Assembly: GCA_963813155.1 (NCBI GenBank) | Contig: CAWEYG010000005.1 | Span: forward strand, 160,001-224,000 | Direction of reading: 5' to 3' | DNA from: an uncultured Acidobacteriota bacterium | GTDB taxonomy: Bacteria > Acidobacteriota > Thermoanaerobaculia > UBA5066 > DATFVB01 | DNA: 64,000 nt | Part shown: piece by piece, positions 20,336 through 38,082 of the stretch | Layout of the letters: every line of letters starts with the position of its first letter | Position numbering within the stretch: position 1 is the stretch's first letter | Translations under genes and position numbers: made by a program | The notes under the pieces: generated by a model | Told to the model about the DNA's origin: nothing | The model's database searches: none | What the model saw: only the letters and a program-made list of their open reading frames with translations

Positions 20336-22444
20336 TCAGAACTTCGCGACTTTGTCGATCGCGGCCTCGATGTCCTCGATCTGGGGAAGGATGAACTTCT
20401 CGAGCGGTGGAGCGTAGCCGACAAAAGTATCCGTCGCCGAGACGCGCTCGACCGGCGCGTCGAGCCACGCGAACAGTTCGTTGCCGATTCGCGCCGCGAT
20501 CTCCGAGGCGTATCCCCAGGAAATCGGGTCTTCGGAGCAGACGACGACCCGGTTCGTCTTCTTCACCGATTCGGAAATGGCCTCCCAGTCGTACGGCGAG
20601 AGCGACCGCAGGTCGAGGATCTCGGTCGAAACGTTCGATTTTTCGGCGATCCTCGCGGCCGCGACGATCGACCGCTGCACCTGAGCGCCGTAGCAGATCA
20701 GCGTCACGCCGGTTCCCGCCTGCACGAGCCGCGCTTTCCCGAACGGGATGCTGTAGTCCGGGCCCGGGTAGAGCCCCTTGTTGTAGGTCTGGCGGTAGAG
20801 GTGCTTGTGCTCGAGAAACATCACCGGGTCGTCGCAGCGGATGGCCGTGCGCAGGAGGCCGTTGGCGTCCTGCGCGTTGGAGGGAAGGACGACGCGCAGG
20901 CCCGGGATGTGCGTGAACATGGTGGGATCGCACTGCGAGTGGTAGAGAGCGCCCGCGATGTAGCCGCCGACGGGAACGCGCACGACGAGGGGGGCGGAGA
21001 ACGTCCCCCCGGAACGCCACCGCATCGTGGCGAGCTCGTTTCGCAGCTGCATGTACGCCGGCCAGATGTAGTCGAAGAACTGGATCTCGACGACCGGCTT
21101 CAATCCGCGCACCGCCATCCCGACCGCGCGGCCGATGATGTTCGCTTCCGCGAGCGGCGAGTTGAAAACGCGGTTGTGGCCGTAGAGCCGCTGCAGGTTG
21201 TGCGTGACCTTGAAGACGCCCCCTTTTCCCTTGACCTCCCCGAGCACGGCCTCGCGGGAGGCGTCCGCGACGTCTTCGCCGAACATCACGATGCGGGGGT
21301 CCCGCGCCATCTCGTCGCGCATGCAGGCGTTGAGCAGGTCGACCATCGTCTGCGGGCCGCCCTCCTCCTTCTTCGGCGTGTCGAACGAGGGAGACGTCGG
21401 GTCGATCGTCTCGGAATAGACCCAGCGAAGCGCGCTCTCCGGTTCGGGCAGGGGGGCCGCCACGGCGCGATCGGCGTCCTCGTCGATCTGCTTTTCGATT
21501 TCCTTGTGGATCGCCGCCAGGTCCGCCTCGGTCGCGATCCCTTCGGCGACGAGGAACTTCGGAAAGGTCGTCAGCGGGTCGCGAGCGAGGTCCTTCTCGC
21601 GCTCGAGCGCGGGGCGGTAGCTCTTTTCGTCGTCGGAGCCGGAGTGCGAGTAGGGGCGGATGACGTGGGCATGGACGAGCGCGGGTCCCTTGCGCTGGCG
21701 GCAGTATTCCGCCGCGAACCGGAGCGCGTCGTACGATTCGAGAAAATCACACCCGTCCACTTCCGTGATGAACAGGTTGGGAAAACCGCGGACGAGCTTC
21801 GAGATCGAGCCGCCCGCCGTCGTGACCTCGACGGGAACCGAAATCGCATAGCCGTTGTCCTCGATGAGGTACAGGACCGGGAGCCTCAGGTTGCAGGCGG
21901 TGTTGAGGGACTCCCAGAATTCGCCTTCGGCGATCTGCCCATCCCCTCCGGAGACGTACACGATCTCGTCTTTGTGGAACTCCCCGTGCGTTTCGACCGT
22001 CGGGAGCTTGGCCATCCGCATGCCCGCTTCCGCGAGGCCCACGGCGTTGAGGAACTGCATTCCGGTGCAGGAGGATTTCGACACGAGATTGAGTTTCTTG
22101 TGTCCCCAGTGGGCCGGCATCTGGCGGCCCCCGGACGCGGGATCATCCTTGGAGCCCGTCCCCTGGAGGAACATCTCGTAGGGAGTCATTCCGAGCGCGA
22201 GGCACAGCGCGCGGTCGCGGTAATACGCGATGAACCAGTCATGGGCGGGGCGCAGGACCATGGCGGCCGCCGTCAGAACCGCTTCGTGCCCGACGCCGTT
22301 GATCTGAAAGTACGTCTTGTTCTGGCGCTTGAGCTGAATTTCCTTGTCGTCGACCTTCCGCGAGAGGTACATGTTCCGGTACGCGGACAGAAGGGCGGAG
22401 GCCTCCAGGCCGTGGTATTTTTCCACCTGCGTTTCAGACGCCAT
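20336..22444 (-). CDS. 2-oxoacid (probably branched-chain) dehydrogenase E1, fused alpha/beta subunits
   Basis: GHEA, YYRD, TPP-binding [20 protein letters not shown]; beta part GEDV, PLAE, EIQFFDY, EHK. Confidence 0.92.
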
Positions 22445-23686: not shown

Positions 23687-24538
23687 CTAGGGGTTGAACC
23701 CGGAGTACGTACTGACCGCCCCGGAGCTGTTCACGCAGTACAGCTGACCCCACAGAGCCGCGCCCCCTGCATCCTGGGTGACGTCCAGGACACCGTCTGA
23801 TAGTGACACGCCGCCGAGCTGGCCGCCGATATCGGGGACAAAGAGATTCGCACACCCTTCGGAGAGAAATGGTGCGCTCTCAGTGAAAAGGCAATCACCG
23901 CTCAAGGTGGAGACCGTCGTCGAGCCGAGTACTTGACCCGCTGGATTTCGGAGCTTCACCGTGGCCGTGAGGTTGGTTACGCTGAAGTTGGAATTGATGC
24001 TCGTTAGGACGAGGTTGCAATGCTCACCTTCATTTTTTGATATTCCCGGGAACGTGAGTTGCGTTGGCCGGGAACGCGAGAGAATCGCCGGCACGCTCAG
24101 TGCCGGGAATTCAGTTTGTGCGTTCGACGCGCGATTGACCGCGTGCACATGGACGACCGGCAGCAGCGCGGGCGATCCGGCGCATGACGCACAGGACGCG
24201 ATGAAGAGAGTAAAGACGTGGTCCTGGGCGAGCGCGGCGATCTGAGCGATGTTGTCCGGATTGATAACGCCGTTCGGGATGCTGAGCGTTTGGCTGCCAT
24301 GTGGAGGAAGTGTCACACTCGTCGTGTTGCAGCCAAAATCGCAGCCACCGATAGCGTTGAAGGCGAATTCCGAGATCACCACAACCATCGGCTCGTCGAA
24401 GGGGTTCGCAAGTTCCACCTGGCTGTCCCACAGCCCGAGTGATCCAACGCCTGCGGCAACGAGCGCGTTTTGGGCGCGTGCCGACGTCGCCACCAGAAAC
24501 CCGATGGACAGTAAGGCCAGCAAACTGTTCTTCCTCAT
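23687..24538 (-). CDS. Secreted Cys-rich hypothetical protein
   Basis: Signal peptide MRKNSLLALL..ARAQ; GGAGG SD; several paired cysteines. Confidence 0.7.
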   Translation of the reverse strand: MRKNSLLALLSIGFLVATSARAQNALVAAGVGSLGLWDSQVELANPFDEPMVVVISEFAFNAIGGCDFGCNTTSVTLPPHGSQTLSIPNGVINPDNIAQIAALAQDHVFTLFIASCASCAGSPALLPVVHVHAVNRASNAQTEFPALSVPAILSRSRPTQLTFPGISKNEGEHCNLVLTSINSNFSVTNLTATVKLRNPAGQVLGSTTVSTLSGDCLFTESAPFLSEGCANLFVPDIGGQLGGVSLSDGVLDVTQDAGGAALWGQLYCVNSSGAVSTYSGFNP

Positions 24539-24573
24539 CGACGCCTCCCTCACGGACCCCAACGATCTTAGAC

Positions 24574-26556
24574 TTATGGCAGCCTTCCCGAGACCGGAAC
24601 TGCGTTCGGAGGCTTGACAGGGGAGATGGGGCGATCGACGTGGATGTCCGAGAGCGCCAACCGCTGGACTCCGTTGCCAAGGAAAAAAGCATAGAGCGAG
24701 TCCCCGGTGGCCTGCAGCCCGAGCGGGTAATCGCTCAGGATCCCGCCCAGAAGCGCCTGCCAGTTGCCGCCAGAGAGCGGCTTCGCGAACACGCTGCTGC
24801 CGAGGCCGGGCCCGAGTCCGAAGAGGAAATGATCACTCGACGCCTCCACCGCTCCAACCTCGGCCGCCGCAGATGCCGTCGGGCGCCAGGTCTGTCCGAG
24901 GTCATCGGTCTGAAGCAGGCCTCCGCCAGTCGCGACATAGAGCATTCCACCCACGCCATAGACCTTCCAGGCGCCGCTGTCCGGCTGGAGAACCGCTGAC
25001 CACGAGGCGCCGCCGTCGGTCGATCGGAAGACCGAGTAGTTGTCGGCGACGAAAAGCGCGTTGGCGACGACTGCGATCGCACACGTGGAGCTGGCCGGGA
25101 CCGCGACGGTCACCCAGTCGGCGGGACCGGACTTTCGATAGAGGCGCGGGCTTCCGCCGAAGGTGCCTGCATAAACGACCCCGTCCCCGGAATAGAGAGC
25201 GCAGATCTCGGGATAGGGTCGCTCGATTCCGGAACTGAAGGCGGCCCAGGTGGCGCCCTGGTCGGTGCTTCGAAAGATCCCGTCCGTCTGAGTTCCCAGG
25301 AGGAGCGACCCATCCGGATGATGCAACAGGGAAGCAGGCGAGTCGCCCGGTGTTGGGAAACCTGCCCAGGTCGAGCCGCGATCGTGGCTCGCGAAAAAAT
25401 TTCTTCCGAGATATCCGTAGACCGAGTCTCCTTCGGCAACCGCCGGGCTGAGAGTCCCGATCGGTCCTGAGTTGCTGGGTTCCCAATTCAAGCCGCCGTC
25501 CTCCGTCGCGAAGACCCCCGCGTAGATGCTGCCTGCCAGAAATCGGTCTCCGACCGAGAGAAAGGCGTTGGGAGCGTCAAGACGCAGGCCAGAGGGAGTC
25601 GCCGGAGGAGCCGGCGACCAGTTCGCCCCGCCGTTCACGGTGGAATACAGCCGCGTACAGGGAGGATCCGGGCAAGGTCCTCCGTAACCGGTCACCTCGA
25701 AGAAGGTATTTCCTGAGCCGTAGACAACTTGAGCCTCCCGGTCTGGAACCGTGGGAATAGGGGACCATGAATGACCTCGATCGAGGCTCCGGTAGAAACC
25801 GCCGGGCGTGCGCGCATACAGGGCATCCGTCCAGAGGAGCGAAAAAACGTACTGGCCCGTCAGGCCCGCGGGCTGGAAAGTTACGCCGCCGTCGTCGGAG
25901 CGCACCACTCCATTGTCGGTTCCTGCGAAGAGGGCTCCGTTGGCCCAGAGCAGGGAGTAGGGGATCCCCAGATCGGCTGGTTGTCGTGCCCATGTCGCTC
26001 CCCGGTCGGTCGACCGGTAGACGCCGCTCGTGTCTCCGCAAGGACCCGTCGGGCAGCCCGGTGGCGGAGTCGCCACCCAAATCGTCGTCGGCGAAGCGGC
26101 GACTGCGTTGATCTCGGAACTCGGGCCCTGAGACTTCGTCCACGTCGAGGAGCCGTCGAAGCTCGCGTAGAGAGTTCCAAAGACATCGGCGAAGACGACG
26201 GTGTCGCCCGAGGCAGCGAGGAGCGGCCCGGCGTAGTTCTCGGAGGGAATCTGGCCTCGCGACACTGGTGTCCATGTCCGTGCTCCATCGGTGCTTTTGA
26301 AGACGCCGGCCTCCAACAGATAGACGTAAACGGCGTTCCCCGAAGCTGCAAAGGCCATAGCGTCCCCGCCGGGTGGACTCAGAGGCGGGCCCCAGGTTTG
26401 GCCAGACGTGGCGACCGTCACGAGCAGGAAGACCGCGAGGAGACAGCAGCGAGTCGTCCTCGATGGCACCGCCGGAAATGCTGAACGGGGAGCAGCCTTC
26501 TGGGAATTGCCGAGGAGAGCAGGGATCAAACGGTCTCGTGATCGATACGGGCTCAC
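24574..26556 (-). CDS. Secreted BNR/VPS10-type beta-propeller repeat protein
   Basis: More than ten Asp-box repeats (S/TxDxGxxW). Hydrophobic signal-like segment lies ~35 aa in, so the true start is uncertain. Confidence 0.8.
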   Translation of the reverse strand: MSPYRSRDRLIPALLGNSQKAAPRSAFPAVPSRTTRCCLLAVFLLVTVATSGQTWGPPLSPPGGDAMAFAASGNAVYVYLLEAGVFKSTDGARTWTPVSRGQIPSENYAGPLLAASGDTVVFADVFGTLYASFDGSSTWTKSQGPSSEINAVAASPTTIWVATPPPGCPTGPCGDTSGVYRSTDRGATWARQPADLGIPYSLLWANGALFAGTDNGVVRSDDGGVTFQPAGLTGQYVFSLLWTDALYARTPGGFYRSLDRGHSWSPIPTVPDREAQVVYGSGNTFFEVTGYGGPCPDPPCTRLYSTVNGGANWSPAPPATPSGLRLDAPNAFLSVGDRFLAGSIYAGVFATEDGGLNWEPSNSGPIGTLSPAVAEGDSVYGYLGRNFFASHDRGSTWAGFPTPGDSPASLLHHPDGSLLLGTQTDGIFRSTDQGATWAAFSSGIERPYPEICALYSGDGVVYAGTFGGSPRLYRKSGPADWVTVAVPASSTCAIAVVANALFVADNYSVFRSTDGGASWSAVLQPDSGAWKVYGVGGMLYVATGGGLLQTDDLGQTWRPTASAAAEVGAVEASSDHFLFGLGPGLGSSVFAKPLSGGNWQALLGGILSDYPLGLQATGDSLYAFFLGNGVQRLALSDIHVDRPISPVKPPNAVPVSGRLP

Positions 26557-26605
26557 GATGCGTCGATCATACCCTTCCCCGCCTTATCGCCCCGCCCATC
26601 GCGAG

Positions 26606-26711
26606 TTGGGAGCAGGAGGTCCCCGGTTCGCATTCAGGAAGACCCCCAGAGAAAGTTCCCGCCCTGAATTGCAAGCCTCGACGCAGGCGAGGTGAAGCGC
26701 AATCCGGGCGC
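26606..26711 (+). repeat. tRNA-Pro 3'-half copy 1, split in the T-loop by a 71-nt insert
   Basis: TTGGGAGCAGGAGGTCCCCGGTTC matches the tRNA, then insert 26630-26700, then AATCCGGGCGC matches the tRNA again. Confidence 0.9.
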
Positions 26712-26729
26712 ATGCCATAATCGCGATCA

Positions 26730-26806
26730 CGGGGCGTAGCGCAGTCCGGTAGCGCTCCTGCTTTGGGAGCAGGAGGTCCCCGGTTCAAATCCGGGCGCCC
26801 CGACCA
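26730..26806 (+). tRNA. tRNA-Pro (TGG)
   Basis: 77-nt cloverleaf CGGGGCG...CGCCCCG-ACCA; anticodon arm CCTGC-TTTGGGA-GCAGG; T-arm GGTTCAAATCC; TGcCATAAT extended -10 just upstream. Confidence 0.97.
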
Positions 26807-26941
26807 ACCTTTTCTTTCGTTTAGCCTCGCGTAGCGCGAGGACCATTTCTGACGAGTTCAAAAATGAGTTCAGAGCGTCTCGATTTCAAATCGCTTTCGG
26901 GAGCACAGCGTTCTTAGCGAAGACGGAGACGTGCCGCTGAG

Positions 26942-28063
26942 TTACCGCTCCCGGGCACGCATTATCGATACGACACGAGCTGGCACGACGGGAGAGATGC
27001 ACCTACGTGACGGAGGGCAGCCCAGATCGATTACGAAAACACCGGCGTTCGTCGCGGCGAGCAGACGCCTATCGGCGGCATCAATAGTCAGTTGAACGTA
27101 TTTAAGATCCACGGGCATGCCGCCCTCGAAGAGAGACCACGTCTTCGCGCCGTCCTCGCTGCGAAGGATATGCATAACGTCCGTGGCTGGATCAAAGCTC
27201 ACCGCGTACATGACGCCCGTGCGAGCAGGATCAGCGAGCAGAGAGATCATCCGTAGGGTGCCGAACCCATTGCTCAAGGGAACCCGGTTTGCGGATGTCG
27301 TGTCGGTCCGCCACACGGCGTCGGGCGTTACGGCGTAGAGACCGGTGGAATCCCAATCGCTCTCGCACAGCGAAGAGATCCCATGAAGCGGGCCGGTCGA
27401 TGAATTGTTGAAGAGATGCCACGTCGTTCCCCCATCGATGCTTCGGGACATGTCGGTTCCTCCCGCATAGACAATTGCGGGATCACTTCGATCAACAAGA
27501 ATGGCCTGCAGATAGAAGTCCGTTAAGGGAAGTTCCTTCCACGAACTCATACCTAGCGTGAACTTAAAAGTCCCATCGCAAGGCGGAGGAGTAAGGTGGA
27601 AAGATGCCACCGCCGTTCCGATGTAAATATGGCCGGGAGGCGTCGAGTCGAGCGCAAAAGCATTATTGGGGAAGCATGGAAGGGTCCCGCTGATATCAGT
27701 CCACTGGAATCCGCCATCGGTGCTCAGAAACACGGCGTCGCCGCTGACGGCGACGACAAGCGAAGGGTTGACGGAGCTTACGGTTAGGGAAAAGACCCCT
27801 TCGAAGAACTCGATGCCGTTATCAGACTCCAACCAGGTTAACCCCGAATCGGAGCTTTTGTAGATATGTTCCGACGAGGTATTCCGTACCGAAGCGTAGA
27901 GAACTGTCGGGTTGGAAGGATCGAGGGCAATCGCATCAACGTAGCTACCTTCGAATGCTAGGCTCCTCCACTGGTTGGCGGCGGAAAATGCCACGCGACC
28001 ATCTCCCAAGAATCCGAGTAAGCCGAGAGAAAGCGCGACCACACCTCTCTTCAGCTTCATCAT
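26942..28063 (-). CDS. Secreted BNR/VPS10-type beta-propeller protein
   Basis: Signal peptide (MMKLKRGVVALSL..), Asp-box repeats (SSDSGLTW, STDGGFQW, SIDGGTTW, SEDGAKTW); codon usage atypical for the window. Confidence 0.8.
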   Translation of the reverse strand: MMKLKRGVVALSLGLLGFLGDGRVAFSAANQWRSLAFEGSYVDAIALDPSNPTVLYASVRNTSSEHIYKSSDSGLTWLESDNGIEFFEGVFSLTVSSVNPSLVVAVSGDAVFLSTDGGFQWTDISGTLPCFPNNAFALDSTPPGHIYIGTAVASFHLTPPPCDGTFKFTLGMSSWKELPLTDFYLQAILVDRSDPAIVYAGGTDMSRSIDGGTTWHLFNNSSTGPLHGISSLCESDWDSTGLYAVTPDAVWRTDTTSANRVPLSNGFGTLRMISLLADPARTGVMYAVSFDPATDVMHILRSEDGAKTWSLFEGGMPVDLKYVQLTIDAADRRLLAATNAGVFVIDLGCPPSRRCISPVVPARVVSIMRARER

Positions 28064-28171
28064 CAGACCTTCTGTACGGACCAGAAGGCGCGGCTGTTTG
28101 CCTTGCTGGATTCCCATGCTGGAATTGCTGAAGATAGAAGAGTTCAAAATCGAGTCCTAGGTGGGGGAATG

Positions 28172-28321
28172 TGCTTTGGGAGCAGGAGGTCCCCGGTTCG
28201 CATTCAGGAAGACCCCCAGAGAAATCCCGCCCTGAATTGCAAGCCTCGCCGCAGGCGAGGTGAAGCGCAATCCGGGCGCCCCGACCAACCTTACTTACCG
28301 CTTTAGCCTCGTGCGCGAGGA
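28172..28321 (+). repeat. tRNA-Pro 3'-half copy 2, split in the T-loop by a 69-nt insert, with CCA end and downstream flank
   Basis: TGCTTTGGGAGCAGGAGGTCCCCGGTTC, insert 28200-28268, AATCCGGGCGCCCCGACCA (to 28287). The next ~35 nt resemble the tRNA trailer (ACCTT...TTTAGCCTCG..GCGCGAGGA). Confidence 0.9.
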
Positions 28322-28397
28322 ACACTTGCGGCTGTTCCTGTGTTTGAGTTGACGACATGAGATGGCTGCCCCTCAAGCTCCGTACAAACATCAGCGC

Positions 28398-30473
28398 ATG
28401 AAATTTTTGAGACGATTGTCTTGCCTTTGGATCGCCTGTTTGATCTTACCCACGACCCTTCAGGCCGGGCGGGGACACTGGACCGGGAACGGCCCTTTCG
28501 GTGCCTGGATCACCGCAATTGCGGCGACAACGGACGGCCAGGTCATTTACGCGGGTACCGATCTCGGCGAAGTCTTTCGGAGCTCGGATGGCGGAGCGCA
28601 GTGGGATGCCGCAGATCCTAGCCTTTACGCCTATTCGTACCAAAAAATTACTTCGATCGCCATCGAGCCCGGAAACTCTTCCACGGTCTTCGTCGCTGCC
28701 GACGGGCGCGGTATCTTCAAGAGCACCGATGCAGGGAACTCCTGGATTCAGGTGAACAGCGGCTTCACTTCGCCGCCGTCGCTCTGCAGCGATATTGGGG
28801 CCTGCTCGCCGAACGTTCTTGCTGTTGATCCGTCCAACGGCAATACGGTTCTGGCGGGCACCGATAACGGCCTGTTTCGGACGACGGATGGAGGTGAGAG
28901 CTGGTCGCTTCTCGAGCCGGACGGCTACCCAAGCGACGTCGTCCAGACAATCGTTTATGACCCGGCTGACACGAACACTATCTACGTGGGCGAGTCGCTC
29001 GGGCTCTACAAGACAACCGACGGAGGAGAGACCTGGTCGGCGCAGGACGGAGGGCTGATCGAGCCCAGCGTCACAAGCCTCGCCATCGATCCTGCTGATC
29101 CCTCGGTTCTTTGGGCCGTCGATGAAGTTCGAGGTGCGTTTCGGATCAACGGAGGCGGCGCCACTTGGACCCCGATTCCGGCGCCGCTCGGTACTCGAAG
29201 GATTCTGGTCGATCCGGCGACTCCCTCGACGCTCTACGGGTTTGGCCCAAACGGTATTTTCCGCAGTGTAAACGCCGGAAATTCCTGGCGCTCGGCTGGG
29301 TACACGGCATCACCTCCCGATTCCTTCCAGGTGGTCCTCTTTGCCGGATCGCCCCCGACGCTTTTGGCGGGCACCGCGTCAGGATTCCTCGAGAGCTCGG
29401 ACCAGGGGACGACGTGGCAGGGCAGGAACCAGGGCATCAGGGAGGTGTCGGTCTCCTCGATCGCCGTCGGGCCAATCGCTCAGCCATCGATCTTTGCGGC
29501 GGTCTCCACGGGCTCCCTGGAAACGATGGGCGCCGGTTGGATCGCCGGCAGCCCCGTCAATGCGAACGACTGGTCGGCGTTGTCCGGTACGGTTGACGGT
29601 CTTGCAACGTCGGTTGTGATCGACCCAGTTAGCCCGATGAACGTCTATGCCGTCGTGGGTCTCAATTTTCTCAGGAGCACCGATGGCGGCCGGACTTGGG
29701 AGCTGATTTCCAACGGCAACTTCTCTTTCGGCTGGCTAGCCGTTGGGCCGACCAACCCGGTGACGATCTACAGCGCCATCAGGGTTGCCACGCGTATTGA
29801 CCCAATCGTCCGCTCGACCGACGGAGGGAACACATGGGTTAGTCTCAACTTTCCTTTCGACAACAGTCGCGGTCCTTTACTGCCGGCTGTCAATAGTGGG
29901 GTCGTCGTCGACCCGAACCGCGCCGGCAGGGTCTATGTTGCCGGAGACTTCGGCATTGCGCGAACGACCGACGACGGTGGAACCTGGGTGAAGTTGAGCA
30001 ACGGATACCCGAATGCTTCAGCGCTGGCGATCGCCATCGATCCGAAGCAGACCTTGACGCTGTACGCAGGGACTCTCATTGGTGTTTTCAAAACCGTCGA
30101 TGGCGGTGATCATTGGGTGAAGGTCAACGGAAATTCCCAACTAATCTTTGTCCAATCGCTCGCGGTAGATCCTGCGGACTCGCGCATTGTTTATGCAGGG
30201 ACGCAGACGGGAATCCAGGTCAGCCGCGACGGAGGAGACACATGGTCGGACCTGAGTTTGGGTCTCCCGCACCCGACGATGGTTTTCAGCCTTGCGGTCG
30301 ATCCGGCCGGCGAACGTGTTTTTGCAGGGACCGACCGCGGCGTCTACGAGTTCACGATGTCGCCGGATCTTAGCCCTGTTCCTTCTCCCGTTATTCAATC
30401 CATTCCGGGTCACTGGCGGGCGAGCGCTACCATCCATGGGCCGCGAAGACAATCCACGGAAAAACCGCGATAG
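28398..30473 (+). CDS. Secreted BNR/VPS10-type beta-propeller repeat protein
   Basis: Signal peptide MKFLRRLSCLWIACLIL..; many Asp-box and 'LAIDPxxP..YAGT' repeats. Confidence 0.85.
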   Translation: MKFLRRLSCLWIACLILPTTLQAGRGHWTGNGPFGAWITAIAATTDGQVIYAGTDLGEVFRSSDGGAQWDAADPSLYAYSYQKITSIAIEPGNSSTVFVAADGRGIFKSTDAGNSWIQVNSGFTSPPSLCSDIGACSPNVLAVDPSNGNTVLAGTDNGLFRTTDGGESWSLLEPDGYPSDVVQTIVYDPADTNTIYVGESLGLYKTTDGGETWSAQDGGLIEPSVTSLAIDPADPSVLWAVDEVRGAFRINGGGATWTPIPAPLGTRRILVDPATPSTLYGFGPNGIFRSVNAGNSWRSAGYTASPPDSFQVVLFAGSPPTLLAGTASGFLESSDQGTTWQGRNQGIREVSVSSIAVGPIAQPSIFAAVSTGSLETMGAGWIAGSPVNANDWSALSGTVDGLATSVVIDPVSPMNVYAVVGLNFLRSTDGGRTWELISNGNFSFGWLAVGPTNPVTIYSAIRVATRIDPIVRSTDGGNTWVSLNFPFDNSRGPLLPAVNSGVVVDPNRAGRVYVAGDFGIARTTDDGGTWVKLSNGYPNASALAIAIDPKQTLTLYAGTLIGVFKTVDGGDHWVKVNGNSQLIFVQSLAVDPADSRIVYAGTQTGIQVSRDGGDTWSDLSLGLPHPTMVFSLAVDPAGERVFAGTDRGVYEFTMSPDLSPVPSPVIQSIPGHWRASATIHGPRRQSTEKPR

Positions 30474-30482
30474 GCTCCAGGG

Positions 30483-30908
30483 ATGAAAAACCCGGCCCGG
30501 CTTGGCGCCCGGCGTATGCGCTCGGCCGCCTTCGCCCTTTTCGTGGCGTCACTCTTCCTCTCCGGCGGCTGCGCGAGCGTCGCGCAGGTGACGAACATTT
30601 CGGAGGACGCTTGCCACCGGAGCTTTCAGAACGCGCTCGCGTCGATTCTGACCGCCGAAGGCGAAAAGCCCGAAGTCGCCGAGAAGCTCGTCTCGCACGC
30701 GCTCTCGATTCTTTCGACCGGAATCGTCGGCCCGCGGCCCTTCCTCGTGTCGTCGCCGTCGGGCGCCGACTACGAGCTGTTCGTCCAGGCGAAGAAGCCG
30801 GGATGCCTCCTGCGGCTCTACGCGCGGCAAAAGGGGTTCGTCCGGTACACGAACAACATGACCTACCTCCAGACGCGGCCGCTCCCGGCGTGCGCCTGCG
30901 CGGAGTGA
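30483..30908 (+). CDS. Putative lipoprotein
   Basis: Lipobox-like LSGGC; C-terminal CAC; genome-typical codon usage. Confidence 0.6.
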   Translation: MKNPARLGARRMRSAAFALFVASLFLSGGCASVAQVTNISEDACHRSFQNALASILTAEGEKPEVAEKLVSHALSILSTGIVGPRPFLVSSPSGADYELFVQAKKPGCLLRLYARQKGFVRYTNNMTYLQTRPLPACACAE

Positions 30909-30929
30909 ATTTCTTCCGGTCGTAACTCC

Positions 30930-31575
30930 TCAGGAAAGATAGCCGGCCTTGACGGCCTGCAGGACGGCGCGCGTGCGGTCGCGCACGCCGAGCTTCGAGA
31001 GGATGCTCGACACGTGGTTCTTCACCGTGCCCTCGGCGACGCCGAGCGCCCGGGCGATCTCACGGTTGCTGTAGCCGCCGGTCATCAGGCGCAGCACGTC
31101 GACTTCACGCTCCGTCAGGGGATCGGGGGGATCGAGGTGGGGAAAGCTGCTGTTCGTCGCTTCGAGGCCTCGGATCACGCGCTCAGATACGACCGGTTGA
31201 ATGGCGGTCCCGCCCGATGCGACGACCCGGATCGCCTGGACCAGCTCCTCGAGGGAGATGTCCTTGAGCAGGTAGCCGCGAGCGCCGGCGCGCACGCCTT
31301 CCAGGACCGCGGCTTCGTCGTCGAACGTCGTGAGGATGATGACGGGCGGGAGACATCCCGCTTCTCCGAGCCTCCGGAGCACGTCGAGGCCGGAGAGCCG
31401 CGGCAAGCCTCAAGTCCAGGAGCACGACGTCCGCTGCCGATCGAGGAATCGCCGCGAGCGCTTCCTCGCCGTCCGATGCCGTGCCGACAACCGCGATTTC
31501 CGCGTCGAGCGCGAGGAGGTTCCGGATTCCCTCGCGGACGAGCGCCTGGTCTTCGACGAGAAAGACGCGGATCAC
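30930..31575 (-). CDS. NarL/LuxR-family response regulator (frameshifted near 31407)
   Basis: VIRVFLVEDQALVREG..VLLDLR in one frame continues as PRLSGLDV..LTTFD..LTERE..GTVKNHVSSILSKL in another. One extra base explains the split. Confidence 0.85.
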
Positions 31576-32726
31576 GGCGCCGTGCCGGGGATCGGAAGAA
31601 TCGCCGTCAGCGAAAACCCCCGGCCGGGCGCCGTTTCGACGGAGAAGCCCCCGCCTCGCTGCTCGACCCGGTCCCGCATTCCGGAGAGGCCGCCTCCCGC
31701 GTGAACGGCGCCGGCCCCGCGGCCGTCGTCGCGCGCGCGGATCTCGACGTCGTCGGCCCTCCTCACGACTCCGATCCACAGGTTCTCGGCCTGGGCGTGT
31801 CGGACGGTGTTCGTGACGATCTCCTGGGCGCACCGCAGAACGACCTCTCCGATGGCGGGATCGTCGAGAGTGAAGCCGGGCACGACGTCGACGTGAATGC
31901 GGAGGCGGGGAATTCCGTCCGCGAGCTTCTGGAGCGCCGCCGAAAGGTCGAGGCCCCTTTCCTGGCGCAGCGCCCCGACGACCGCGCGCACGTCGCCGAG
32001 CAGCAGCCTTGTCACGGACTGCGCGGTTTCGACGCGGGCGAGCGCGTCGCCGTCCGTGAGGTGGCTCGCGACTTCCAGATTCAGGGAAAGGGCGGTCAGG
32101 TGGTGGCCCAGGACGTCGTGCAGATCTCGCGCGATTCGCGCGCGCTCGGCGATCCGAGTGCTCTGCGCGAGCAGCTCGCGCGTGGCCTCGAGCTGGGCAT
32201 TGGCGGCGGTCAGCCGCTCTCGCGCGGCCGATTCTTTGACGAGAAGCCGAGCCGCGGCGTCGGCGACGAGCTGGAACGACAGGTACGCAAAGACGAGGAC
32301 GACGGCCCAGTGCCACCCCCACTGCACCCACATGATCGCGCCCAATCCGGCGCTCTGGGCCGCGATCCACGCGGCGGCAGCGCGCCTGGTCAAGAGTCCT
32401 CCGAGCTCGAGGGCGACGAGCACGAGAAGGGCGGCCTCGAGGCCGAAGCAGGTGGGGAGCGCCAGCAGGGAAAGCACGGCCGCCGTCTGGCCGGCGACGA
32501 GAACGATCGCTCCGGCGCGGTCCGGATTTCGGCGACGCGGCCGGCTCGCCAGCCCGTAGGCGAGGCCGAAGAGAAGGAACGAGGCAGCCCACGCGAGAAG
32601 AGAGGTCCAGTCCCGCCCGCGAGCGGGAGCCAGGGCCTCTCCGATCAGGACCGGAGCGCCGACGGCGAGCCAGATCGCGAGACCGCCGGAGCGCAGGAGG
32701 CGCCGGGAATCGTCCGGATCTCTCAT
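31572..32726 (-). CDS. Membrane sensor histidine kinase (HisKA_3, DesK/NarX-like)
   Basis: TM region; ERARIARDLHDVLGHHL, QEIVTNTVRHA, DDGRG, GGGLSGMRDRV. Confidence 0.92.
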   Translation of the reverse strand: MRDPDDSRRLLRSGGLAIWLAVGAPVLIGEALAPARGRDWTSLLAWAASFLLFGLAYGLASRPRRRNPDRAGAIVLVAGQTAAVLSLLALPTCFGLEAALLVLVALELGGLLTRRAAAAWIAAQSAGLGAIMWVQWGWHWAVVLVFAYLSFQLVADAAARLLVKESAARERLTAANAQLEATRELLAQSTRIAERARIARDLHDVLGHHLTALSLNLEVASHLTDGDALARVETAQSVTRLLLGDVRAVVGALRQERGLDLSAALQKLADGIPRLRIHVDVVPGFTLDDPAIGEVVLRCAQEIVTNTVRHAQAENLWIGVVRRADDVEIRARDDGRGAGAVHAGGGLSGMRDRVEQRGGGFSVETAPGRGFSLTAILPIPGTAP

Positions 32727-32769
32727 GGTTGCAATCCGAGTATAGGCGCGGGCGGCCCGGCCCCGCCCC

Positions 32770-32818
32770 TGCCGGAAGTCATGGTCGCGGAAATCTTCGG
32801 CAGGCGTGACCTTCGGCA
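32770..32818. promoter_or_regulatory. Candidate response-regulator binding site in divergent intergenic region
   Basis: Imperfect inverted repeat TGCCGGAAGTCAT ... GTGACCTTCGGCA, with a third half-site (CTTCGGCA) between the arms. Confidence 0.5.
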
Positions 32819-32868
32819 CACGCAACGCTTCGTTCCTTTCCGTAGCCTGAGACGTGAAAGGAGAGTTC

Positions 32869-33246
32869 ATGAAAAAGTTTCTGCTCCCGGTTCTGGTCTC
32901 GCTCTTCGTGCTCGCGCTCGCGGAGGGAGTTCGCCTCTGCGCGGAGGAAATCCCCGCGGACGTCACGCTCAAGGGCACGATCGTCGACATGCATTGCTAC
33001 GTCACGCACGGCATTCACGACGCCGGGCACACGGCGTGCTCCAACGCCTGCATCGCGCGGGGCGTGCCGGCGGGCCTCCTCGCGGAAGACGGCACGCTCT
33101 ACGTCCTGTTCGAACAGAAGCCCTTCTCCGTGAAGGAAAAGGTGGCGGGACTCGCCGACGTTCCCGTGACGGTGACGGGCACTCCCGTCGTTCGCAGCGG
33201 CATCAAGGGACTGCAGATCAAGACGATCGAGAAAGAGGTGAAGTGA
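32869..33246 (+). CDS. Small secreted Cys/His-motif protein (DUF5818-like)
   Basis: Signal peptide; GTIVDMHC..H..CSNACIARG; AAAGGAG SD. Confidence 0.7.
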   Translation: MKKFLLPVLVSLFVLALAEGVRLCAEEIPADVTLKGTIVDMHCYVTHGIHDAGHTACSNACIARGVPAGLLAEDGTLYVLFEQKPFSVKEKVAGLADVPVTVTGTPVVRSGIKGLQIKTIEKEVK

Positions 33247-33599
33247 TGGCGAGCGTTGCTTCGAAGATCCTCGCGGCGGCAATGATCGTCCTCGCGGTCG
33301 GGATTGCAGCGGCGGCCGAGGTCGAGCAATCGTGGAAAGGGCGTATCGGCGACAGCATGTGCGGTGTTTCGCACATGACCTCCGGCGACCCGTCGGCAAA
33401 GACGCCGACAGACGGGGATTGCGTCCGGTCCTGCGTCAAGGACGGCAGCGCGTACGTTTTCGTCAGCGACGGAAAAGTCTTCGCGATCGAGGACCAGGCC
33501 TTCGCCGACCTCGACAAGAACGCGGGCCGCGACGTGACGGTGTACGGAAAGATGAATAAGGACTCGATCCGGATCTCCCGGATTACACCGAACGATTGA
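33246..33599 (+). CDS. Small secreted Cys/His-motif protein (DUF5818-like)
   Basis: Coupled start (TGATG); signal peptide; GRIGDSMCGVSH..CVRSCVKDG..YVFV..VTVYG. Confidence 0.72.
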   Translation: MASVASKILAAAMIVLAVGIAAAAEVEQSWKGRIGDSMCGVSHMTSGDPSAKTPTDGDCVRSCVKDGSAYVFVSDGKVFAIEDQAFADLDKNAGRDVTVYGKMNKDSIRISRITPND

Positions 33600-33637
33600 C
33601 CGTTCGCGGGGGGGGGTAGACATTCTTCACCCATGGG

Positions 33638-33652
33638 TGTAGATTGTCTACA
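33638..33652. promoter_or_regulatory. Palindromic operator overlapping -10 and start of PadR gene
   Basis: TGTAGA-ttg-TCTACA palindrome; second imperfect site GTAGACATTCTTCAC at 33616-33630. Confidence 0.55.
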
Positions 33653-34014
33653 TGGTTGAGGGGGACGCCCCGGTCTCGCGGATCGAGCTGCTGCAGGGCA
33701 CTCTCGACCTCATCGTCCTTCAGACGCTCTGCTGGGGGCCGCGCCACGGATACGGCATCGCGCAGATGATCCGAGCCGGCTCGCGCGACCTGCTGCAGGT
33801 CGACACCGGCTCCCTCTACCCGGCGCTTCATCGTCTCGAGCGCCAGAAGGCGATCTCGGCGGAATGGGCCGTGTCGGAGAACCGACAGCGCGTCCGCCTC
33901 TATCGCCTGACTCCCGCGGGCCGCAAACGGCTTGCCGCCGAACGGTCGAAGTGGGAGCAGCTCTCCGGCATCATCGAGGGAATCCTGTCGCTGCCCGCGG
34001 AGAGCGAGGCGTGA
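33652..34014 (+). CDS. PadR-family transcriptional regulator (acidobacterial type)
   Basis: LLQGTLDLIVL..HGYGIAQ..GSLYPALHRLE..SENRQR. Confidence 0.92.
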   Translation: MVEGDAPVSRIELLQGTLDLIVLQTLCWGPRHGYGIAQMIRAGSRDLLQVDTGSLYPALHRLERQKAISAEWAVSENRQRVRLYRLTPAGRKRLAAERSKWEQLSGIIEGILSLPAESEA

Positions 34015-36653: not shown

Positions 36654-36702
36654 CCGCGGGCACGAATGGTAGAGTCTCCCTCAGAAAGCAGGGAGACCAG
36701 TC

Positions 36703-37614
36703 ATGAATTCCGGAAACGTGATCGATCTCGACGCGCTCAAGCGCCTCCGCGAGAGAGCCCGATGGATTCCGCTCGCCATCGCCGTTCTGGCCGCCGGGAT
36801 CTTCGTCGCAAACTGTATGGTCTATATCCGTCCCGGCTCGGTGGGCGTACTGATCCACCGGAGCGGCGGCGGCGTCGACCGCACGCCGCTCGACGTCGGG
36901 TTTCATTTCAAATGGCCCGTGCTTCAGGAAGTCGTCGAGTACCCGATCTACATGCAGACCCTCGTGCTGACGCGATCCGACCGCGAAGGAAATGCGTACA
37001 ACGAAGAGATCAACGTCAACTCGGTCGAGGGCCAGCCGATCAGCTGCGACGTCTCGCTTTCCTTCGAGCTCGATCCGACCCGGGTTCCCTTCTTGTACAG
37101 CTCGTTCCGGACGACGATCGGAATGATCACTCATGGCTTCGTGAAACAGAGCATTCGTCAGGCTCTGCAGGAAGTCGTCGGGCGTACCGAGATCGTGAAT
37201 TTCCTCGGCAAAGACAAAGCGCTCGTCGTCAACCAAACGCAGGCCGATCTCCAGAAGCATCTCGGCGAGTATGGATTCGTTGTCAAGCAGTTCACGTTGA
37301 ATGAGGTTCGTGCGCCGGATTCGATCGTCAAGGCGATCGAAGCGAAGAACACGATGGCTCAGGAGGCTCTTCGCGCGCAGAACGAGATGCAAAAGAAACA
37401 GTTCGAGGCGCAGCAGAAGATCATCGAAGCGGAGGGGGACGCGAAATCGACGCTCACGCGAGCGAAGGCTCAGGCGGAATCGAATCAACTCCTGTCGTCT
37501 TCCCTCACCGCCCAACTTGTCGAATACCGCAAGATCGACAAATGGAACGGCCAGCTGCCGCAGGTTTCGGGCGGCGCAACACCGTTCATCACCCTGCAAA
37601 AGCCCGAGCGCTAG
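36703..37614 (+). CDS. SPFH/prohibitin (Band 7) family protein
   Basis: TM helix, PGSVGV, SIVKAIEAK coiled coil, KWNGQLPQV tail. Confidence 0.88.
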   Translation: MNSGNVIDLDALKRLRERARWIPLAIAVLAAGIFVANCMVYIRPGSVGVLIHRSGGGVDRTPLDVGFHFKWPVLQEVVEYPIYMQTLVLTRSDREGNAYNEEINVNSVEGQPISCDVSLSFELDPTRVPFLYSSFRTTIGMITHGFVKQSIRQALQEVVGRTEIVNFLGKDKALVVNQTQADLQKHLGEYGFVVKQFTLNEVRAPDSIVKAIEAKNTMAQEALRAQNEMQKKQFEAQQKIIEAEGDAKSTLTRAKAQAESNQLLSSSLTAQLVEYRKIDKWNGQLPQVSGGATPFITLQKPER

Positions 37615-37626
37615 AGCAAGTTCGGA

Positions 37627-38082
37627 CTACCCTCGCGCCGAGCGCTGCTCGCGCCGGGGGGCCATTTCGACAGGGGGCTGCTCGCGGCGTTCGAGGCTCG
37701 CGTCCACGCTCGCGGCCCATGGCCGCGGGATCGCCGAGAGCATCAGCGCCGATCCGAGCAGGGCGATGTTCTTCGTGAAGTTCACCATGTCGTTGATCTG
37801 CTCGGTGCCCGTCTCGCTCCAGAACGGGTGCATGTAGATCGTCACCGGGGCGAGAAAGAGCACGATCGCCCCGATTCCGACGGACGGTTTCCACCCGAGC
37901 AACAGACTCAATCCTCCGACGAGAAGGAACGCGCCGGCGACGGGAACGGCGACCTCCGGAAAGGGAACGCCCTTCGCGGCCGCGTACACCGCCGTCTTCG
38001 CGCTGTGCAGGAGCAGGTTCGCTCCGCTGAAGAGGTAGAACCCGGCCACGACGAGGCGGCCGGTCAGGAATGCGGTTTTCAC
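37627..38082 (-). CDS. DoxX family membrane protein
   Basis: GRLVVAGFYLFSG..YAAAKGVP..MHPFW..NFTKNIALLG; GGAGG SD. Confidence 0.85.
   Translation of the reverse strand: MKTAFLTGRLVVAGFYLFSGANLLLHSAKTAVYAAAKGVPFPEVAVPVAGAFLLVGGLSLLLGWKPSVGIGAIVLFLAPVTIYMHPFWSETGTEQINDMVNFTKNIALLGSALMLSAIPRPWAASVDASLERREQPPVEMAPRREQRSARG

Follow-up and report, generated by a model that had tools for sequence, protein, structure and literature searches.

Two pieces of tRNA-Pro, both split in the T-loop by the same two-hairpin insert, accompany the intact tRNA-Pro gene in the window (the whole 64,000-nt stretch of DNA that was analysed). With a probability of roughly 0.55, we consider these repeats to be non-functional tRNA-Pro pieces at the right-hand junctions of DNA inserted at tRNA-Pro. 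In this same reading, the inserts represent protein-less, hairpin-bearing insertion modules at tRNA ends, which are stacked by accretion and one of which carries a gene.

tRNA genes are classic landing sites of mobile DNA, and the known footprints are plain copies of tRNA ends. The footprint described here holds a hairpin module that is conserved and covaries, always at the same T-loop position, in two tRNA identities; the copy number of the module changes between close relatives, and in one case a gene is present as cargo. If the module is a working part of the insertion reaction, DNA would be added at tRNA genes without a linked integrase, and this would account for the rows of tRNA-end copies which annotation pipelines either take for tRNA genes or pass over. 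If it is only wreckage with REP-like hairpins, the case still documents the decay of a tRNA hot spot. The source genome (G000) is a 3.8-Mb MAG with an estimated contamination of 3.76%. It was compared with two congeners of genus g1, G001 and G002; several key claims rest on G002, which is an unpublished genome.

Anatomy of the split tRNA-Pro copies

The locus comprises the following features, where I denotes the insert and T and T′ the two trailers:

24574..26556 (longest ORF; likely start near 26478), minus strand: gene1, BNR/Sortilin-type propeller protein (Pfam BNR, Sortilin-Vps10)
26502..26530, no strand: 28-nt box between gene1 and copy 1, 75% identical to 28120-28148 (0 of 2000 shuffles reach the score)
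26606..26629, plus strand: left tRNA-Pro part of copy 1, anticodon loop to T-loop TTC (24 nt, 100% identical to the tRNA)
26630..26700, plus strand: insert I in copy 1, 71 nt, two hairpins (covariance model R1, 115.6 bits)
26701..26711, plus strand: right tRNA part of copy 1, AAT, T-stem 3′ strand and 3 nt; acceptor 3′ strand absent
26712..26729, plus strand: native tRNA-Pro leader, contains CATAAT; identical in G001 directly after the gene1 upstream region
26730..26806, plus strand: functional tRNA-Pro(UGG) (ARAGORN; Rfam tRNA, 68.5 bits)
26807..26850, plus strand: trailer T, hairpin 26823-26841; resembles T′ and the tRNA-Ala trailer of G001
26851..26904, plus strand: left bracket of the gene2 block, GAGTTCA-N6-GAGTTC and 35 nt; 85% identical over 54 nt to DNA after the tRNA-Ala trailer in G001
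26942..28147 (likely start ATGATG at 28073), minus strand: gene2, small secreted propeller-like protein (weak Sortilin-Vps10 match)
28120..28157, no strand: second copy of the 28-nt box, found by local alignment, overlapping the right bracket GAGTTCA-N6-GAGTCC
28172..28199, plus strand: left tRNA-Pro part of copy 2, from 3 nt before the anticodon loop to T-loop TTC (28-nt repeat of the tRNA)
28200..28268, plus strand: insert I in copy 2, 69 nt, two hairpins; the right 45 nt are similar to a CGTC-type REP unit, with partial matches to a hairpin repeat that genus g40 has in multiple copies
28269..28287, plus strand: right tRNA part of copy 2, AAT, T-stem 3′ strand, acceptor 3′ strand and CCA (the last 19 nt of the tRNA, 100% identical)
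28288..28335, plus strand: trailer T′, hairpin 28305-28321 (alignment to T)
28362..30473, plus strand: gene3, BNR/Sortilin propeller protein (Pfam); not found in G001 or G002

The initial annotation had described two same-orientation copies of the tRNA-Pro 3′ part besides the intact tRNA, and the repeat search and the sequence agree on this. Copy 1 (26606-26711) starts at the second base of the anticodon loop and stops past the T-stem 3′ strand, with the tRNA beginning 18 nt further on; copy 2 (28172-28287) extends from 3 nt ahead of the anticodon loop to the CCA end. As had been noticed, both begin at the anticodon arm and are broken at GGTTC^...^AATCC by the same insert, which leaves the T-loop short of one A; the inserts of 71 and 69 nt are near-identical, being one substitution and a 2-nt indel apart. 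Also borne out were the duplication of the tRNA trailer hairpin by copy 2, where the ~45 nt that follow resemble the trailer (none of 2000 shuffles was as good), and the location of each copy upstream of a minus-strand propeller gene, which Pfam assigns to the BNR/Sortilin type. No complete cloverleaf is obtained after removal of the insert: the 5′ half is missing from both copies, and copy 1 has no acceptor 3′ strand either. No tRNA could be made from the split copies because the acceptor strand or the whole 5′ half is absent, and neither was called as a tRNA in the window by ARAGORN or Rfam.

The flanking propeller genes are distant paralogues: the gene1 and gene2 proteins are only 23% identical, those of gene2 and gene3 26%. 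Between the two sites gene2 is the sole ORF. The bracket motif of its block occurs only twice in the genome, at the left bracket and at 28140; in a search of genome contigs the 19-mer of this motif was found at 17 loci, of which only that of G001 is related.

Since the source is a MAG with some estimated contamination and short-read assemblers break at repeats, an assembly artefact had to be considered, and the initial annotation had named it as well. We regard it as practically negligible. In run X1, Logan contigs extend over 26578-26711 and 28250-28600, spanning the outer junctions of both copies; those of run X2 contain a relative with a diverged variant, a deletion form of copy 1; and the independently assembled G002 carries the same insert in the same T-loop. 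The copies are therefore due neither to chance nor to mis-assembly.

Variation of the locus among congeners

The initial annotation had asked whether genes between the repeats vary. The content of the tRNA-Pro neighbourhood differs in all three congeners: the DNA after tRNA-Pro is different in each of G000, G001 and G002. Positions 26816-30504 have no counterpart in G001 or G002, and gene2 has no DNA match in either. The direct repeat of the tRNA 3′ part at copy 2 (28 + 19 nt) bounds DNA that is lacking in the relatives. In G001, gene1 is found in the same place with 91% identical DNA, and copy 1 is absent. Both gene1 and p291 are absent from G002, where the order is DUF2911, leader, a full-length split tRNA-Pro copy with its acceptor 3′ strand missing, leader and tRNA; a leader similar to 26712..26729 precedes each of these two tRNA copies. 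The proposal that a unit of gene plus split repeat occurs twice holds as far as G000 contains two such arrangements, but gene1 stays in G001 without the repeat. Judged by these differences in gene content, tRNA-Pro is an insertion hot spot with a content that varies among the three congeners.

Coding DNA of the compared genomes is 87%, 79% and 72% identical. Differences between copy 2 and G002 are confined to the loop of hairpin 1 and one T-stem base, and by alignment the insert has changed far less than the DNA around it.

Relatives of the insert behind tRNA-fMet

Model R1, a covariance model built from the Pro-type insert only, finds a diverged relative in a 3′ fragment of tRNA-fMet in G002 (44 bits), at the identical T-loop position. 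This fragment lies 76 nt behind the tRNA and has the arrangement GCAAG-T[..I′..]AAT-CTTGC followed by the acceptor strand; in the Pro copies the arrangement is CCCGG-TTC[I]AAT-CCGGG. The orthologous fMet site of G000 holds a truncated copy, and no split unit was found behind tRNA-fMet in G001. In sister-genus genomes, tRNA-fMet is followed by tandem split units numbering from one to four or more. In the complete sister-genus genome G004 there are 4.1 units with a period of 143 nt, 98% alike, the last of which is followed by a different trailer. G003 contains at least four units; the most distal is the most decayed, a long form common to G000, G002 and G005. Behind tRNA-fMet of G005 one direct and one inverted unit were found. 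Each fMet unit closes with an intrinsic terminator, all units bar one lie on the strand of the tRNA, and some hold quite different hairpins in place of the insert. The split-fMet pattern occurs in 3 of 101 genomes of the order, all from family f1. The insert is not unique to this locus; uniqueness together with invariant neighbours was among the conditions under which the initial annotation would have given up its reading. The repeat search that it had suggested turned up relatives in G002 and in the fMet rows, and within the source genome itself only the two tRNA-Pro copies.

For the covariation analysis we used nine units and one partial row in an alignment fitted to the model. Compensatory substitutions preserve the pairing of both hairpins: both sides change in 12 of 24 pairs and 92.5% of cells are paired, values not reached by any of 500 shuffles; slid controls gave 31-38%. 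The family is known from six genomes only, which are kin and not independent. The comparison supports the insert as a conserved, covarying module at the same T-loop position of two tRNA identities.

Wider searches yielded few further candidates. Full-length matches to the insert were obtained by BLAST in 2 of 401 genomes of the class, and a two-gap pattern run over 401 genomes matched four, two of which look like chance. Exact-pattern scans of genome contigs gave a single true match (1/1 in the first scan), a record matching the G002 contig; 93 of 94 and 11 of 12 loci were coding-sequence coincidences, and a scan of metagenome contigs returned one chance match with no tRNA. Weak R1 matches (n = 27, 20-31 bits) were discarded: the eight that were read lay in coding-looking DNA, and ARAGORN found no tRNA in the five to which it was applied. 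With model R2, one candidate match of 20 bits was seen over 28 tRNA-Pro loci of other genomes. A match to any of the 58 tRNA genes as the origin of the insert was rejected, being no better than shuffles (97 of 100 as good). A full-text literature search, which was not exhaustive, found no description of T-loop-split tRNA-end repeats.

Origin of the split units

Partial tRNA copies resulting from integration are common (PMC9897764). The locus shares several traits with the attL/attR sites of integrated elements: DNA that relatives lack is bounded on its far side by a direct copy of the tRNA 3′ part, the copies are cut at the anticodon loop in the case of Pro and at the T-stem in that of fMet, and each row begins with a regenerated, working tRNA. 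Islands that have plain repeats but no integrase are also found in this genome: in G000, tRNA-Ala and a 45-nt repeat enclose an integrase-less island of 15.5 kb. In G026, which is nearby in the phylogeny, tRNA-Pro is accompanied by a plain 46-nt repeat 1.7 kb away. Elements with tyrosine integrases leave tRNA-fragment repeats as attL and attR, accrete in tandem and have integrase-less derivatives of the CIME type; a sublocation scheme for tRNA integration sites is reportedly due to Williams (2002). Unlike attL/attR, the split copies offer no contiguous block of tRNA identity: in the T-loop the conserved two-hairpin module interrupts it by 69-71 nt, at the very point expected for a conservative crossover. 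Also unlike such sites, some units are only ~140-165 nt long and gene-free, one copy lies upstream of the tRNA, and no integrase was found. The two junctions do not have the same overlap sequence, so the joint does not follow from classical integrase chemistry. The initial annotation had suggested looking for a co-occurring recombinase. The four PF00589 matches of the genome are on contigs C6, C2 and C3 (two pieces) and none is on C5, the contig of the window; Pfam searches of the ORFs between 20 and 40 kb gave no integrase, with gene2 being propeller-like, and no recombinase or transposase was linked to any copy. Any mobility would have to act in trans, because there is no recombinase nearby. 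At the level of contigs, neither an excised product nor an empty site was seen.

Two other tRNA-linked systems are partly similar. Behind E. coli tyrT there are 178-bp repeats, each with the last 19 nt of tRNA-Tyr, which are the source of RtT RNA. The rows described here likewise follow a tRNA gene immediately and repeat in tandem, with a copy of the tRNA 3′ end closing each unit, but the tyrT repeats have no T-loop split and no hairpin module, and Rfam gave no RtT match here. Archaea possess non-canonical tRNA introns and split tRNAs, some of them in the T-loop; the intervening sequence in the T-loop of a tRNA-like gene is comparable, whereas our host is bacterial and its copies have lost either the acceptor strand or the entire 5′ half.

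Some REP families are located within the loops of small palindromes that serve as their targets (Di Nocera et al. 2013, PMC3733652). CGTC-tagged REPs are described there as short GC-rich hairpins with an AT-start stem, single or in head-to-head doublets, which have no dedicated transposase. The right half of the insert matches a REP-type repeat, (C/T/G)GTC-ATTGCGAG...CGAAGCAATC, which is present in three doublets in G000 and in many copies in g40: 31-38 nt are 84-88% identical to the g40 repeat, and R2 scores are 29-35 bits. In contrast to CGTC REPs, the insert lacks the tag, its unrelated left half forms a second hairpin with a conserved loop, and it is found only within tRNA T-arm copies, with at most two copies per genome here. 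The likeness to REPs appears confined to the right half of the insert, through these 31-38-nt matches. PF01797, the Y1 transposase family of REP/RAYT systems, was found in 3 of 4 genomes of the sister genus g2, 2 of 2 tested g40 genomes and 0 of 3 genomes of g1. None of four patterns, which covered REP-like units as well as T-loop words on both strands, matched within ~1.5 kb of the four Y1-type loci of g2.

As for the insertion mechanism, the order of events and present mobility, we infer the following. A two-hairpin module would lodge at the fixed T-loop point TTC^AAT, as part of a family-specific class at the 3′ ends of tRNA-Pro and initiator tRNA-Met copies. Each unit of a row would supply a new tRNA 3′ end with trailer and terminator and push the older end downstream (tandem accretion). 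The modules would act as DNA, either as the attachment site of small protein-less units or as REP-like hairpins lodged in the T-arm palindrome, and the enzyme that moves or copies them would be encoded elsewhere or have since been lost. Copy 2 would be the displaced end behind a 1.4-kb unit carrying gene2; copy 1 would be the remnant of an upstream, dead tandem copy of tRNA-Pro with its 5′ part replaced by the p291 and gene1 block. An ancestral tandem duplication must be added, because simple accretion does not predict split copies upstream of the working tRNA, where copy 1 and that of G002 are located. The insert may have reached copy 2 in a target that was already split, by gene conversion or by a new insertion, and the tandem rows could also arise by unequal crossing-over, for which no insertion mechanism is needed. 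A tentative, clearly less probable version sees the split T-arm with its two covarying hairpins as a folded attachment site, with a trans-acting recombinase, T-loop insertion, a regenerated end, stacking and occasionally a single gene. The hairpins would bring the T-arm halves into a tRNA-like core that is recognized by a recombinase encoded elsewhere, and the locus would be a tRNA-anchored, trans-mobilised cassette platform using structure-specific recombination, as integron attC sites do.

Among the rival explanations, the split units may be structured small RNA genes or parts of transcripts, in which the T-arm stem closes a three-way junction with two hairpins and enzymes of tRNA maturation act on the product; transcription would be joint with the tRNA or next to it, and the tyrT repeats that give RtT RNA are the nearest parallel. 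The initial annotation had likewise offered processed RNAs that might control the adjacent genes. The covariation of both hairpins is consistent with this, as are the identity of the flanking T-stem halves and acceptor strand to the host tRNA, the shared strand of all units but one, the terminators of the fMet units and a Pro insert that is conserved between G000 and G002 as much as the tRNA itself. We nevertheless consider it rather unlikely. The units are dispensable and decaying (none in G001, truncated or deleted in G000 and X2, one inverted in G005), the insert is swapped for quite different hairpins in other units, and the stability of single-sequence folds is not significantly above normal (z -1.5 and -0.5). 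A scan of 26400-28500 gave 0 sigma-70-like sites, so that copy 1 is without an obvious own promoter, and there is no Rfam family match: cmscan of 26000-29000 with E up to 10 returned only the tRNA and a chance RAGATH-28 inside gene3, and no group I intron. Terminator-like matches on the minus strand inside the insert were weak and no more frequent than in shuffles. Improbable in our view is plain wreckage, that is, one chance insertion into a redundant tandem tRNA-Pro copy of the genus ancestor, followed by deletion, duplication and gene conversion, with the fMet units as an unrelated, coincidental occurrence of hairpin-rich DNA. It would fit the tandem duplication of leader and tRNA in G002 with the insert in the upstream copy, and G000, the X2 relative and G001 as a deletion series; gene conversion, given flanking identities of 28 and 19 nt, could have supplied the insert of copy 2. 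It is countered by the homology of the fMet insert, detected with a Pro-only model at the identical T-loop position, by hairpins that covary across units and by the gene2 block with its own unique bracketing motif. Moreover, the insert is identical outside one loop although coding DNA is 13-28% diverged, which is not what neutral decay predicts (0.87^60 ~2e-4).

The initial annotation favoured recombination sites of an integron-like array. In an active platform of this kind, folded sites and a dedicated recombinase would capture single promoter-carrying genes beside the tRNA. Integron attC sites are folded single-strand recombination sites in which structure is conserved over sequence; the sites here are likewise structured and covarying, they would bracket a gene, one single-gene block (gene2) lies between tRNA-derived sites, and the gene content of the site varies among congeners. 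The integron part of the proposal nonetheless failed and appears very unlikely: there are only two sites in the 3.8-Mb genome, built on tRNA sequence, with no integrase on the contig, no IntI, attI or Pc and no attC-like signature or organisation. Gene1 is kept in G001 without a site, the propeller genes are only distantly related, and the arrays of relatives hold no genes between units. What stood of the proposal is that the repeats are junctions of inserted DNA and that the structured insert is conserved and covarying.

Hairpin 2 of the insert resembles tRNA trailer hairpins: 51 of 2000 shuffles were as good, and for the trailer of one tRNA-Pro(CGG) 7 of 2000, before correction for 58 tests. 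The resemblance is no more than suggestive.

Split copies of tRNA-Pro in the window

Two partial copies of tRNA-Pro(UGG) lie in the window, and their coordinates and description in the initial annotation were correct:

26730-26806: tRNA-Pro(UGG), the sole such gene here (ARAGORN; Rfam tRNA 68.5 bits)
26606-26711, same strand as tRNA-Pro: copy 1, from the second base of the anticodon loop to the end of the T-stem 3′ strand
28172-28287, same strand as tRNA-Pro: copy 2, from 3 bases 5′ of the anticodon loop to the CCA end

In both copies the T-loop is split between TTC and AAT, one A being absent, by a two-hairpin insert of 71 nt (copy 1) or 69 nt (copy 2); the two inserts are one substitution and a 2-nt indel apart. 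Rfam gave no match besides tRNA. Copy 1 is followed by the native 18-nt leader and then by tRNA-Pro proper, and the ∼45 nt after copy 2 are similar to the tRNA-Pro trailer with its hairpin (0 of 2000 shuffles equalled this). A weak RAGATH-28 match in the propeller-type gene gene3 (28519-28597, 16.5 bits, E 9.2) is read as chance. ARAGORN also calls a second tRNA-Pro(UGG) of 75 nt on the minus strand of the same contig of the source genome G000 (C5:15370-15444), outside the window; it is very different, has a poor acceptor stem and may be a pseudo-tRNA or foreign.

Mis-assembly, raised initially as a possible source of the repeats, was rejected. The unpublished genome G002, a congener and the second genome of the genus with the insert, carries it in the identical T-loop; contigs of sequencing run X1 span 26578-26711 and 28250-28600, the outer junctions of copies 1 and 2; and in run X2 a contig belonging to a relative ∼91% identical in gene1 has copy 1 with an internal deletion, retaining its first 8 nt followed by the insert's last 10 nt and the T-stem. 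A 116-nt query against the source genome itself returned the two copies and the tRNA only. Among 61 relatives the tRNA part was matched in 50 and the insert was found in G000 and G002 only; class-wide, 2 genomes out of 401 have the insert at full length. In a set of 185,579 species, each represented by one genome, and in metagenome contigs, exact-pattern scans gave the G002 contig as the only record, the other matches being coincidences in coding DNA.

The insert as a family

A covariance model built on the T-stem and insert of the three Pro copies and run on 151 genomes of the order gave one further strong match (44 bits), in G002, 76 nt 3′ of tRNA-fMet. The match is a piece of this tRNA, made up of the T-stem 5′ strand and T, an insert of 61 nt, AAT and the 3′ strands of T-stem and acceptor; the insertion point is identical to that of the Pro copies, and compensatory changes between the fMet and Pro inserts preserve both hairpins. 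The complete fMet copy of the genus rests on G002: at the orthologous site G000 has a truncated copy followed by a second trailer copy, and the congener G001 has no fMet split unit. Rows of split units stand at the tRNA-fMet locus of the sister genus. The complete genome G004 has 4.1 tandem copies, 98% alike, with a period of 143 nt; each unit comprises the tRNA's last 19 nt, the trailer and a terminator hairpin with a T-run, then a spacer in which the T-arm 5′ half is copied backwards, the T-stem 5′ strand with TTC, and a 39-nt two-hairpin insert. A different trailer follows the last unit. Just past this array (L237, 835-867) an operator-like palindrome, made of a 17-nt unit in 1.9 copies, stands before a small ORF. 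In G003 the units number at least four and their inserts are short, composite or long; the one farthest out is the most decayed and has the long form common to G000, G002 and G005. G005 has one direct and one inverted unit. Among 101 sampled genomes of the order, 3 have the split-fMet pattern (3/6 in the source family f1, 0/47 in each of families f2 and f3); the pattern misses the G002 unit, in which one base is changed.

A base-pair count took in nine units of four genomes together with a partial row: both partners differ in 12 of 24 pairs, and pairing is kept in 92.5% of cells (equalled by 0 of 500 shuffles; slid controls 31-38%). These counts lean towards structure, the sequences being related and their alignment having been fitted to the model. 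Judged from these sequences, the insert represents a family rather than an isolated case. Between copy 2 of G000 and G002 the differences are confined to the loop of hairpin 1 and one T-stem base, with leaders, trailers and genes diverging by 13-30%. Since the neutral chance of 60 identical bases at 87% identity is ∼2e-4 by simple arithmetic, the Pro insert would, on the evidence of G002, be either constrained or recently exchanged. The fMet long form changes about like its surroundings (31/34 versus ∼85%).

REP hairpins are already known. One hairpin repeat, (C/T/G)GTC-ATTGCGAG-hairpin-CGAAGCAATC, is matched by the Pro insert over its right 45 nt; the repeat is multi-copy in a genus of another family (g40), often at contig ends. 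Partial matches were found in 12 of the 34 genomes of that family, a model, R2, gives 29-35 bits, and G000 has three intergenic inverted doublets of 85-90 nt (C2:173106, C4:59425 and C11:43745). In its stems starting with AT, its head-to-head doublets and its lack of a dedicated transposase, the repeat is like the CGTC-type REPs of Di Nocera et al. 2013 (PMC3733652). The same paper places some REP families within loops of small target palindromes; the T-arm is a palindrome of this sort. Y1 (PF01797) genes were found in both g40 genomes tested, in 3 of 4 sister-genus genomes and in 0 of 3 genomes of the source genus, and a search around the sister-genus Y1-type genes with four patterns (REP-like units and T-loop words) gave nothing, so no enzyme is assignable.

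Gene content around tRNA-Pro

G001, which shares ∼92% identity with G000 over a housekeeping gene, has the order gene1, the same leader and tRNA-Pro, without copy 1. On its downstream side 26816-30504 is replaced by a different ORF of 287 codons, and 30909-37627 likewise has no counterpart. This 6.7-kb segment of the window, missing from G001 here, has genes for a PadR regulator, a MacB/FtsX permease and an SPFH/Band 7 protein as well as an ORF of 861 codons that matches nothing in Pfam. G002 (∼87% in that housekeeping gene, 72-79% in other genes) was read from joined contigs, the end of C360 overlapping the start of C238: a DUF2911 gene, ∼128 nt and a leader are followed by a tRNA-Pro copy with its entire 5′ part, the insert and a T-stem 3′ strand that lacks the acceptor strand, then by ∼32 nt including a second similar leader, then by an intact tRNA-Pro. 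On the evidence of G002, leader and tRNA were probably duplicated in tandem in the ancestor of the genus, with the insert in the upstream copy. G002 lacks gene1 and, to its left, p291 (23687-24562). In G000 and G001 this ∼3-kb p291-gene1 block takes the place of the upstream leader and the dead copy's first 33 nt, and its right junction therefore lies in the anticodon loop. The DNA 3′ of tRNA-Pro is different in all three genomes, so the site is, by comparison of their sequences, an insertion hot spot.

A single gene, gene2, lies between the tRNA-Pro trailer and copy 2. Its product is a small secreted propeller-like protein with a weak Sortilin match (Pfam), 23-26% identical to those of gene1 and gene3. 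The block is flanked by the motif GAGTTCA-N6-GAGT(T/C)C, present in the 3.8-Mb genome at these two sites only. In G001, DNA 85% identical to the left bracket (54 nt) stands directly past a tRNA-Ala trailer, the one related locus among 17 matches in a search of the species collection. Behind this tRNA-Ala (contig C14) lower-GC DNA follows the common bracket, with no tRNA-Ala end copy within 8.6 kb. The DNA immediately left of copy 1 and of copy 2 has a 28-nt box in common (0/2000 shuffles). Brackets and box would fit two related insertions, each with a right-end propeller gene beside a tRNA-derived site.

Origin of the split copies

We favor a DNA-level insertion module at tRNA ends, with a probability of roughly 0.55; the value is set by the crossing-over alternative, the lack of shared overlap at the joints and the lack of a linked enzyme. 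The simplest scheme fitting the fMet rows and copy 2 would be a two-ended insertion unit, with a replacement tRNA 3′ end and trailer at one end and the T-stem 5′ strand, TTC and the hairpin module at the other. Recombination with a resident tRNA, to the right of the module, would regenerate the tRNA and leave the old 3′ end behind the module as a split T-arm; repeated rounds would stack units with the oldest farthest off, as in G003. Applied to copy 2, the scheme would make 26788-28268 the unit, gene2 its cargo and the trailer-like 28288-28335 the older trailer. The module might have reached copy 2 by a new insertion, by gene conversion across flanks of 28 and 19 nt, or because the target was already split. 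An extra step would be required for copy 1 and the G002 copy, either the ancestral tandem duplicate or a mirror-image unit bringing leader and 5′ part.

Unequal crossing-over can produce the rows without an insertion step. A structured RNA is an unlikely explanation and plain wreckage a still less likely one. The split copies are real and more than a scar. They are not an integron, and an active integron-like platform is very improbable; the genome holds just two copies, PF00589 matches are confined to contigs C6, C2 and C3, and a Pfam scan of all large ORFs at 20-40 kb of the window found no integrase. Classical integrases leave a shared overlap at the joints, unlike the joints here. Partial tRNA copies from integration are already well known (PMC9897764). 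Our literature search found no account of a conserved covarying module that keeps one T-loop position in tRNA-end copies, stands in tandem rows and has gene cargo. The split copies are a new form of the tRNA-linked insertion footprint, so far in one family of uncultured Acidobacteriota.

Plain uninterrupted att-type fragments are present in G000 and in a phylogenetically near genome. In genome G026, a 46-nt repeat starting from the anticodon loop lies 1.7 kb from tRNA-Pro, at a locus with a C-terminal integrase-like remnant (judged by eye). In G000, tRNA-Ala(CGC) and a plain 45-nt 3′-end copy bound a 15.5-kb island (C2:355757-371342) with genes for ChrA/ChrB chromate resistance, ABC/HlyD/FtsX transport, a Ser/Thr kinase and a sigma-54 activator; an integrase is missing from it. 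When each of the 52 distinct T-arms in G000 was screened for a split version, the Pro copy was the only one returned; the screen also gave a plain T-arm-to-3′-end duplicate behind tRNA-Glu. At tRNA-Glu(UUC) on C3 (∼20912-21075, minus strand), the uninterrupted copy of T-arm and 3′ end lies ∼70 nt downstream, past a hairpin.
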